A program made the position numbers and the translations under genes. Of a DNA stretch of 64,000 nt, positions 26,338 through 29,259 are shown in pieces. Position 1 is the stretch's first letter. Every line of letters begins with the position of its first letter. The notes under the pieces are model-generated. The model did no database searches. It was not told where the DNA came from and saw only the letters and a list, made by a program, of their open reading frames with translations. Origin of the DNA: Parcubacteria group bacterium M10-OD1-1. Lineage in GTDB: Bacteria > Patescibacteriota > Minisyncoccia > Moranbacterales > UBA2206. Location of the stretch: positions 73,993 to 137,992 of the forward strand of contig LSNL01000003.1 in assembly GCA_003056145.1 (NCBI GenBank), written 5' to 3'.

Positions 26338-29259
26338 ATGAAAGATTATAATTTTGGACAAATAGAAAGAAAATGGCAGGATAAATGGAGTAAAGATAGT
26401 TTGTATCAAACGCAAGACTCCGAAGATAAACCGAAATATTACATTTTAGATATGTTTCCTTATCCATCAGGAGCAGGGCTTCATGTTGGGCATCCTAAGG
26501 GTTATATTGCAACAGATATTGTAGCTAGGATGAAAATGTTGCAAGGTTATAATGTGCTTCATCCAATGGGATGGGACGCTTTTGGTTTGCCGGCAGAAAA
26601 TTTTGCGATTAAAAATAAAGTTCATCCACGAGAAATGAATGAGCGAAATATAGCTACCTTTAAAAGTCAATTAGAAAAAATAGGATTTAGTTACGATTGG
26701 AATAGAGAAATAAATACTACAGATCCAGAATTTTATAAGTGGACACAGTGGATATTTTTACAAATGTTTAAAAAAGGATTAGCTTATGAATCTTACGAGC
26801 CGATAAATTGGTGTCCTTCTTGCCAGACTGGTTTAGCTAATGAGGATTTAGAAGATGGGCGATGTGAAAGATGTGATAGTGAAATTGAACAAAAGCCAAT
26901 GCGACAATGGGTTTTAAAAATTACAGACTACGCTGAAAGAATGTTAAATGATCTAGAGAAATTACCAGAATGGGACAATTCAATTAAAGAAATGCAAAAA
27001 AATTGGATAGGAAAATCAGAAGGAGCTTTGGTGAAATTTGAAGTAAGAATTTCGAATTTTGATTCAAATTCTAATGATTTAATTTCAGAGAATAAAAATT
27101 TAAAATTAAATATTGAGGTGTTTACTACAAGGATTGATACAATTTTTTCGGCGGCTTTTGTGGTGGTAGCACCAGAACATCGATTAATTGAGAAATTAAA
27201 AGAGCAAATTGAAAATTATGATGAAGTTATTGATTATGTAAAAAAAGCGAAAAATAAAACTGACTTACAGAGAACAGATTTAGAGAAAGATAAGACTGGT
27301 GTAGAATTAAAAGGAATTAAAGCTATAAATCCAGCTAATAACAAAGAAATTCCTGTTTGGATTGCTGATTTCGTATTAGGATATTATGGAACAGGAGCTG
27401 TTTTTGCTGATGCTCACGATGAACGAGATTTTGAGTTTGCAAAAAAATATAATATTCCTTTAACTGAATCGATTGCGCCGTTATTTACAGGAACATGCAA
27501 TGATAAACCAAGAAAAGATAAAAAAACTGTTAAAAGAAGAAATATTGAAGCTATTATCAAACATTGGGAAAAAGATGAATATTTTTGTTTAAATTGGAAA
27601 TTCAATAATTGGAAATCTTTTATTATAGGTGGTATTGAAAAAGATGAAAGCATAGAAGATGCTGCAATCAGAGAAATCAAGGAGGAATCTGGTTATCAAA
27701 ATATGAAAGTTATTAAAAATATTGGTTATGAGATGCATAGCGAATTTTTTGCACCACATAAAGATATAAATAGGTATGCTCAGAGAAATTGTGTGTATAT
27801 TGAATTATTAGATGGTGAATATAAAAAACCTAGATTAGAAGATATTAAAAATCATAATGGAAGTTGGATTAAAAAAGAAGAAGTTGATAAATTTTTGACT
27901 ATTAAAGAATCAAAAATATCTTGGGATATTTTACAAAATGGCGAAAAACCCTTTACGAAAAAAGGTATATTGATAAATTCGGAACAATTCAATGGAATGA
28001 CTTCGGATGAAGCAATGCCAAAAATTATTGAATGGTTGAGGAAAAAAGGCTTGGCGGAAAAAGAGGTTAATTATAAATTGAAAGACTGGGTATTTTCTCG
28101 ACAAAGATATTGGGGTGAACCGATTCCAATTATTCATTGTGAAAAATGTGGAGTAGTTCCCGTACCAGAAAAAGATTTGCCAGTTGTTTTACCAGAAGTT
28201 GAAAGTTATGAACCAACTGGAACAGGGGAGTCGCCTTTGGCTAATATTAAAGATTGGGTGAATACTAAATGTCCAAAATGCGACGGTAAAGCTAAACGAG
28301 AAACTAACACTATGCCACAATGGGCGGGATCAAGCTGGTATTATTTACGATATATTGATCCGCATAATGACAAGGCTCTAGTAGATAAAGACAAAGAAAA
28401 ATATTGGTCACCAGTTGATTTTTATGTGGGTGGAGCAGAGCATGCTACGAGGCATTTAATTTATGCGCGTTTTTGGCATAAATTTCTATTTGATATTGGT
28501 ATGGTTAATTATGAAGAACCGTTTATTAAATTACAACATGTCGGCTTGATTATGGCTGAGGATGGACGAAAAATGAGTAAGCGTTGGGGAAATGTAATCA
28601 ATCCAGATGATATTGTGGAAGAGTTCGGTGCTGATGCTATGCGAGTTTATGAAATGTTTATGGGTCCATTTGCTCAAAGTTGTGATTGGAGCACGAAAGG
28701 ATTAATTGGTGCTAAAAGATTTCTTGAAAAAGTCTGGCGATTGTTTCAAGAAAAAGAATTGATTAGTTGTGAGGGCAAATGCGCTGAGATATCAAAAACA
28801 ATTCCTCCTTTATTTCATAAAACAATTAAAAAAGTCGGCGAAGATATTGAAAGTATGAATTTTAATACAGCCATTTCACAAATGATGATTTTTGTAAACG
28901 AGTGTTCTTGCCATAAGCTTTTACCGAAATCGGCAATGGAAAATTTTTTAATATTGCTATCGCCGTTTGCTCCCCATATTGCAGAAGAAATTTGGACTAA
29001 TTTAGGACACGAAAAATCTATTTTTTTAGAAAAATGGCCAGAATTTAATCCTAATATGATTAAAAATAAAATAATTGAAATGGTAATTCAAGTTAATGGA
29101 AAAGTACGGGATAAAATTCAAGTGTCAGCAGATATTTCCGAAACTGAAATTAAAAAGAAAGCTTTAGCTAGTGAGAAAATACAAAAGTATATTAGTAATC
29201 AAGAAATTAAAAAAGTTATTTTTGTCCCAGGAAAAATATTTAATTTAGTAGTAGAATAA
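26338..29259 (+). CDS. leuS: Leucine--tRNA ligase, CP1-editing-domain-less, with an inserted Nudix-box domain
   Basis: HVGH (HIGH variant), KMSKRWGN (KMSKS variant). Only about 70 aa between TTRIDT and YGTGAV. The insert at about 27470-27960 contains GGIEKDESIEDAAIREIKEESGY. Confidence 0.9.
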   Translation: MKDYNFGQIERKWQDKWSKDSLYQTQDSEDKPKYYILDMFPYPSGAGLHVGHPKGYIATDIVARMKMLQGYNVLHPMGWDAFGLPAENFAIKNKVHPREMNERNIATFKSQLEKIGFSYDWNREINTTDPEFYKWTQWIFLQMFKKGLAYESYEPINWCPSCQTGLANEDLEDGRCERCDSEIEQKPMRQWVLKITDYAERMLNDLEKLPEWDNSIKEMQKNWIGKSEGALVKFEVRISNFDSNSNDLISENKNLKLNIEVFTTRIDTIFSAAFVVVAPEHRLIEKLKEQIENYDEVIDYVKKAKNKTDLQRTDLEKDKTGVELKGIKAINPANNKEIPVWIADFVLGYYGTGAVFADAHDERDFEFAKKYNIPLTESIAPLFTGTCNDKPRKDKKTVKRRNIEAIIKHWEKDEYFCLNWKFNNWKSFIIGGIEKDESIEDAAIREIKEESGYQNMKVIKNIGYEMHSEFFAPHKDINRYAQRNCVYIELLDGEYKKPRLEDIKNHNGSWIKKEEVDKFLTIKESKISWDILQNGEKPFTKKGILINSEQFNGMTSDEAMPKIIEWLRKKGLAEKEVNYKLKDWVFSRQRYWGEPIPIIHCEKCGVVPVPEKDLPVVLPEVESYEPTGTGESPLANIKDWVNTKCPKCDGKAKRETNTMPQWAGSSWYYLRYIDPHNDKALVDKDKEKYWSPVDFYVGGAEHATRHLIYARFWHKFLFDIGMVNYEEPFIKLQHVGLIMAEDGRKMSKRWGNVINPDDIVEEFGADAMRVYEMFMGPFAQSCDWSTKGLIGAKRFLEKVWRLFQEKELISCEGKCAEISKTIPPLFHKTIKKVGEDIESMNFNTAISQMMIFVNECSCHKLLPKSAMENFLILLSPFAPHIAEEIWTNLGHEKSIFLEKWPEFNPNMIKNKIIEMVIQVNGKVRDKIQVSADISETEIKKKALASEKIQKYISNQEIKKVIFVPGKIFNLVVE

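Follow-up and report, generated by a model that had tools for sequence, protein, structure and literature searches.

Why should a leucyl-tRNA synthetase (LeuRS) gene carry a canonical Nudix box in the middle of its reading frame, and does the inserted segment replace an editing activity that the enzyme has lost? The question was raised by the leuS gene of a bacterium from the Candidate Phyla Radiation (CPR; Patescibacteria), located on the forward strand of the 64-kb stretch of DNA analysed here as a whole (the window). An earlier note, made from the letters of this stretch, had described the product as a LeuRS devoid of the CP1 editing domain, in which a Nudix module would partly make up for the missing site. 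As detailed below, the Nudix module is there, and so is CP1. The features on which the argument relies are the following, with invariance referring to 87 relatives:

26338–29259, + strand: leuS ORF, 973 aa in a single uninterrupted frame, bacterial-type LeuRS with the insert
26482–26493, + strand: HIGH signature HVGH of the class I catalytic site (aa 49–52; H49, G51 and H52 invariant)
26998–27468, + strand: N-terminal part of CP1 (aa 221–377), aligned with T. thermophilus LeuRS up to residue 362; best PF13603 stretch aa 221–381, profile positions 1–142 of 185
27124–27141, + strand: Thr-rich editing motif TTRIDT (aa 263–268; T263, T264, D267 and T268 invariant)
27412–27429, + strand: editing-site motif AHDERD with the conserved Asp (aa 359–364; H360, D361, R363 and D364 invariant)
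27469–27957, + strand: inserted predicted Nudix hydrolase module (aa 378–540)
27628–27696, + strand: Nudix box GGIEKDESIEDAAIREIKEESGY (aa 431–453), positions verified, canonical in full
27757–27774, + strand: family-specific hairpin motif HKDINR (aa 474–479), after the aromatic pair F470/F471
27958–28083, + strand: C-terminal part of CP1 leading back into the catalytic core (aa 541–582), aligned with T. thermophilus LeuRS from residue 374; G543 and S548 invariant
28570–28584, + strand: KMSKS signature KMSKR (aa 745–749; K745, M746, S747 and K748 invariant)

The synthetase and its CP1 editing domain

Judged by its sequence, the gene product is a complete LeuRS with predicted aminoacylation and editing sites. 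It scores 1031.9 bits against the NCBIfam equivalog TIGR00396 (leuS_bact; cut-off 548.4), matches the T. thermophilus enzyme (PDB 1h3n) with an E-value of 1e-219, and carries both the HIGH and the KMSKS signatures of class I synthetases. The AlphaFold model of the whole protein (pLDDT 88.3) superposes on E. coli LeuRS–tRNA complexes with a target-normalised TM-score of 0.87. Domain order and motifs are those of canonical bacterial LeuRSs from E. coli and T. thermophilus (PDB 4aq7, 1h3n and 2bte), which have in common with the window enzyme the HIGH motif, a CP1 domain with Thr-rich and Asp motifs, the KMSKS motif, and the anticodon-binding and C-terminal domains. Unlike them, the window enzyme has about 160 additional residues that form a Nudix domain within a CP1 loop. 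The leucine-specific domain, on the other hand, is missing from it, only 4 counterparts being present for T. thermophilus residues 580–636. A chimeric assembly was considered as the source of this architecture and rejected, because the identical arrangement recurs in hundreds of independent assemblies. The neighbouring genes in the window (GGDEF, SnoaL-like, nucleotidyltransferase, VanW, Hsp20, TsaD and ATP synthase beta) look unrelated.

Few synthetases have been studied as thoroughly as LeuRS, whose CP1 domain is targeted by drugs, the benzoxaboroles. The description of the enzyme as lacking CP1 was mistaken. It arose from the distance between TTRIDT and YGTGAV (aa 350–355), read as the place of a missing domain; both motifs belong to CP1 itself and their 81-residue spacing is that of T. 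thermophilus. The Pfam model of the LeuRS editing domain (PF13603) reaches 172.5 bits, with a second matching stretch besides the best one, and the window protein is colinear with T. thermophilus LeuRS over residues 1–362 and 374–579, a range that wholly includes CP1, which we take to span residues about 224–417 of that enzyme. Altogether, the Pfam match, the colinear alignment, the motif spacing and the superposition place the insert inside CP1 and not in its stead. CP1 retains its Thr-rich motif as well as its conserved Asp, and T263, T264, D267, T268, D361 and D364 do not vary among 87 relatives, so that no editing site has been lost that would need replacing. The naturally CP1-less LeuRS of Mycoplasma mobile (PDB 3ziu, 637 aa), which is the type that had been supposed and which also appears among the matches, reaches a TM-score of only 0.53 to the window enzyme, whose CP1 is complete.

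The Nudix insert and its nearest relatives

The part of the earlier description that concerned the insert itself fared much better. The other two landmarks that it quoted are found as FAKKYNIPL (aa 367–375) and KGILINSEQFNG (aa 542–553), and the estimated 150 extra residues correspond to about 156 (aa 380–535), facing 11 residues (363–373) in the T. thermophilus LeuRS alignment. In close relatives, the distance from the equivalent of NIPL to the equivalent of the second landmark is 25–74 residues when the insert is absent and 170–180 when a Nudix module is present. The box is an exact fit to the signature GX5EX7REUXEEXGU, as had been claimed, and the Pfam NUDIX model (PF00293) recognises the insert with 40.2 bits (E 4e-10; cut-off 21.1). 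A chance occurrence of the motif was ruled out by this score together with the fact that the 64-kb window, translated in all six frames, contains 1 Nudix-box-like match, the one in the LeuRS insert. Modelled alone, the insert is predicted to adopt the alpha/beta/alpha sandwich of the Nudix fold with a pLDDT of 96.1. In the model of the whole protein, the successive 10-residue blocks of aa 371–550, linkers included, have pLDDT values of 90–96, suggesting that the module is held as a rigid insertion. The picture that emerges would be that of a Nudix pyrophosphohydrolase complete in itself, about 160 aa long, that interrupts a variable surface loop of CP1. This loop follows the helix with the editing Asp by some 15 residues and precedes the hairpin at the C-terminal end of the domain. 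At the DNA level, the GC content of the insert (27%, against 32.7% in the remainder of the gene) is not decisive, and a search of its flanks for signs of recent insertion revealed only short AT-rich repeats of the kind expected by chance.

Conservation was counted over 409 related Nudix modules. The first Gly of the box is kept in 406, the Glu of the RE pair in 406, the two Glu of the EE pair in 401 and 408, and the last Gly in 400. The ExxEE core is retained in 97–100% of the modules in each context class with more than 40 members and in 91–100% in the smaller classes. Most modules keep the complete canonical box, while mean column identity over the insert is only 37%. The hairpin that follows is also conserved (K in 397, N in 385 and R in 358 modules), and its K and R align with a K and an R of the Ap4A hydrolase from Aquifex and of AvrM14. 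Since a Nudix fold is predicted and the motif is conserved in relatives (box Glu residues in 401–408 of 409), neither of the outcomes that the earlier note regarded as fatal to its Nudix assignment was obtained. Moreover, as the metal-binding Glu residues are essentially invariant, we infer that the module is catalytically active, so that it would constitute a second, independent, Mg-dependent active site beside those of LeuRS. A non-catalytic insert with a structural, regulatory or ligand-sensing role, comparable to NrtR-type regulators, might be suspected from a minority class in which Glu at position 7 of the box is replaced by Gln (47 of 409) and the Arg of position 15 has been lost (342 of the 409 modules have R there). 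Such a role seems very improbable, given that the metal-binding Glu residues persist in 401–408 of the 409 modules, minority class included, and that the box in the window is canonical throughout.

The substrate specificity of Nudix enzymes is notoriously difficult to infer from sequence, and the module does not reach a single NCBIfam equivalog cut-off. Its best score against the RppH equivalogs (PRK00714) is 26.6 bits, where the six models require 116–259 (118 for the best-scoring one), and against the MutT 8-oxo-dGTP diphosphatase (PRK10776) it obtains 17.2 bits where 148 are required. Profile searches of the PDB gave as best matches AvrM14 (5e-9), 2azw (6e-9) and the Aquifex Ap4A hydrolase (1e-8), together with the lupin Ap4A hydrolase and Chlamydia CT771; the top ranks in Foldseek went to the Ap4A hydrolase of Aquifex and to E. 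coli RppH, the best single-sequence PDB matches were to Dcp2 (E 9e-4), and MutT1, NudI and YmfB are also among the structural neighbours. The high ranks of Ndx1, Rv2985 and the Aquifex enzyme have to be read beside those of decapping enzymes, MutT-like proteins and the uncharacterised 2azw, which are equal or higher. On these comparisons, the nearest characterised relatives are hydrolases of diadenosine polyphosphates and Nudix enzymes of the RNA-decapping or RppH type. The Ap4A hydrolase aq_158 of Aquifex (3i7u), Ndx1 of T. thermophilus (1vc8), Rv2985 of M. tuberculosis (9cxx), E. coli RppH and AvrM14 are all like the window module in fold and canonical box, and the Aquifex enzyme also shares its post-box aromatics and K...R hairpin. 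These enzymes are free-standing and only 13–24% identical, whereas the window module is embedded in a synthetase and differs from them by a conserved HK-x2-NR motif of its own and by a strand-loop extension at the N terminus. The MutT/nudix family protein of Enterococcus faecalis in PDB 2azw, likewise free-standing (17% identity), is uncharacterised and therefore of no aid in assigning a substrate.

Dunn et al. are said to have noticed in 1999 that ApnA hydrolases have an aromatic residue about 16–18 positions past the Nudix box. F470 and F471, 17 and 18 residues downstream of Y453, correspond to an aromatic F/Y pair in 379 of the 409 modules and agree with this weak criterion. Substrates of the Ap4A type, which the earlier note had also suggested, are plausible for a module whose nearest characterised neighbours in sequence and structure include Ap4A, Ap6A and ApnA hydrolases.

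Distribution of the module and competing explanations

The insert is typical of its lineage, being carried by 99 of the 120 best LeuRS matches. A genome search for related loci, built on a tight 8-sequence alignment of the insert, found the module in at least 415 species genomes, nearly all of them Patescibacteria (one-pattern scan, best 80 classified). Within LeuRS it occupies three different sites, and tandem and stand-alone copies also exist: among the best 150 cluster representatives, the only settings were LeuRS (in most cases), a class II ProRS, stand-alone or tandem forms, and proteins in which the module lies beside a degenerate CP1. Stand-alone relatives have mixed neighbourhoods that include leuS, a valS-like gene, fpg/polA, ndk and other Nudix genes; one copy lies 2 bp upstream of a leuS, and in three assemblies they are found immediately downstream of fpg/mutM, with polA nearby. 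A neighbour-joining tree of 87 LeuRS cores requires at least 10 changes between presence and absence of the insert. The insert is dispensable, and its repeated loss among close relatives makes it improbable that it is integral to the fidelity of LeuRS. In relatives, this CP1 loop also accommodates other inserts, and sister LeuRSs carry Ham1/ITPase, HAD or alpha/beta-hydrolase domains, the common theme being small-molecule hydrolases. The module is an evolutionarily mobile accessory and would stand outside the LeuRS mechanism. A phage or viral origin was considered and rejected, since tblastn gave no match in 50,697 phage records and viral contigs yielded no confirmed relative.

The proteins with a degenerate CP1, of about 303 aa, come from metagenome-assembled genomes labelled Ruminococcus or Bacilli. 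They keep the CP1 fold, but as they have lost the first Asp together with the Thr-rich and GTG motifs, classical editing by them is unlikely. We know of no natural free-standing homologue of CP1, and these stand-alone proteins may be the first. In being editing-domain homologues outside a synthetase they resemble the trans-editing factors AlaX, ProX/YbaK and ThrRS-ed; the sections of the review PMC11295145 concerned with such free-standing editing enzymes name no CP1 homologue.

We give an even chance to the reading in which this LeuRS tethers a mobile accessory (di)nucleoside-polyphosphate hydrolase. From the nearest neighbours we infer polyphosphate-linked nucleotides as the probable substrate class: dinucleoside polyphosphates such as Ap4A, which arise as by-products of synthetase adenylates, would be the first choice, and related non-canonical NTPs the second. 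The module would then do house-cleaning while tethered to an essential synthetase, with which it is expressed. To our knowledge LeuRS is not among the strongest producers of Ap4A, which counts against the Ap4A reading, and the fpg/mutM and polA neighbours of the stand-alone relatives suit a MutT-like NTP sanitiser no less than an ApnA hydrolase. A possible alternative, though on the whole a rather unlikely one, is that the module is the MutT- or ITPase-like enzyme of its lineage, acting on (d)NTPs that have been oxidised or deaminated and mechanistically independent of LeuRS; the synthetase, being constitutively expressed, would only provide a convenient carrier for it in a tiny genome. Those gene neighbours and the copy beside ndk agree with it, as do the Ham1/ITPase or HAD inserts of sister LeuRSs, MutT1, NudI and YmfB among the structural neighbours, two stand-alone relatives (P0143 and P0242) that reach the Pfam Nudt16-like cut-off (27.8 and 35.0 versus 27 bits), and the repeated losses, which reveal that LeuRS can dispense with the module. 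However, housekeeping genes crowd together in such small genomes anyway, the MutT equivalog score is far below its cut-off, and a pure carrier would leave unexplained why the module among the best 150 representatives is restricted to synthetases (LeuRS, ProRS) or a CP1 scaffold.

Another possible role has to do with the position of the insert. CP1 binds the 3′ end of the tRNA beside its 5′ end, and would so position an RppH- or Dcp2-like hydrolase to strip 5′-triphosphates or Np4A- and NAD-type caps from tRNALeu or other RNAs. Dcp2 as best single-sequence match, RppH models as the best in NCBIfam, the mRNA-decapping AvrM14 as top profile match and E. coli RppH among the top Foldseek results all point in this direction, and the Ruminococcus- and Bacilli-labelled proteins, with a CP1 fold devoid of the editing Thr, suggest that CP1 could serve as a binding scaffold. 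We nevertheless regard an RNA 5′-end hydrolase as quite unlikely: the same module occurs at non-CP1 positions, in ProRS and alone, so that CP1 is not required, the RppH cut-offs are missed by a wide margin, and tRNA 5′ ends, made by RNase P, are normally monophosphates. As for the other proposal of the earlier note, that the Nudix module hydrolyses mis-activated aminoacyl-adenylates and so partly substitutes for lost editing, all that speaks for it is that a hydrolase and a synthetase are found together, and we find it scarcely credible. Its premise is false, with CP1 present and its editing residues invariant, and close relatives with the same CP1 have repeatedly lost the module. Moreover, Nudix enzymes act on a nucleoside diphosphate linked to X, that is, on a pyrophosphate linkage, whereas an aminoacyl-adenylate is an acyl-phosphate, and this activity was rejected on grounds of both chemistry and intact editing.

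Precedents and meaning

The suspicion that no fusion of an aminoacyl-tRNA synthetase with a Nudix domain had been described agrees with a full-text literature search, which returned no description of a Nudix insert in LeuRS. There are precedents for combining such folds with accessory enzyme domains, as in NadM-Nudix (PDB 2qjt), where a HIGH-type nucleotidyltransferase, NMN adenylyltransferase, is joined to an ADP-ribose pyrophosphatase, or in a class I synthetase, the IleRS with a GNAT domain (NCBIfam NF040702). In both cases the domains are presumably joined end to end, whereas the Nudix domain in the window is nested within the editing domain.

A broader and bolder reading, which we put forward tentatively and consider unlikely as it stands, is that a mobile Nudix module has specifically colonised the synthetase genes of ultra-small symbiotic prokaryotes and forms with CP1 a functional unit that has been exported. 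Colonisation would have involved the three sites in LeuRS, one in ProRS and the tandem and stand-alone copies, and the unit would have left as a free-standing CP1-like protein for the genomes labelled Ruminococcus and Bacilli. If true, Nudix and CP1 would act together on a ligand that occupies the editing pocket or the acceptor end of the tRNA, with adenylate-derived dinucleotides and capped or triphosphorylated tRNA ends as candidates, in a new kind of synthetase-coupled quality control, and the LeuRS of CPR bacteria would be a platform for house-cleaning hydrolases of the Nudix, Ham1, HAD and alpha/beta-hydrolase types.

The nesting of a conserved, predicted catalytic domain within CP1 in hundreds of uncultivated species indicates that this domain can accommodate large functional insertions and perhaps even puts them to use. 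The LeuRS-Nudix architecture offers a test of the long-suspected link between the side-products of synthetases, Ap4A and its relatives, and their removal, and has a bearing on how housekeeping enzymes are packaged in the genome-reduced CPR and DPANN organisms. Even if the Nudix module were merely a passenger enzyme, it would still illustrate clearly how a domain can be inserted into an essential gene, and lost from it, time and again.

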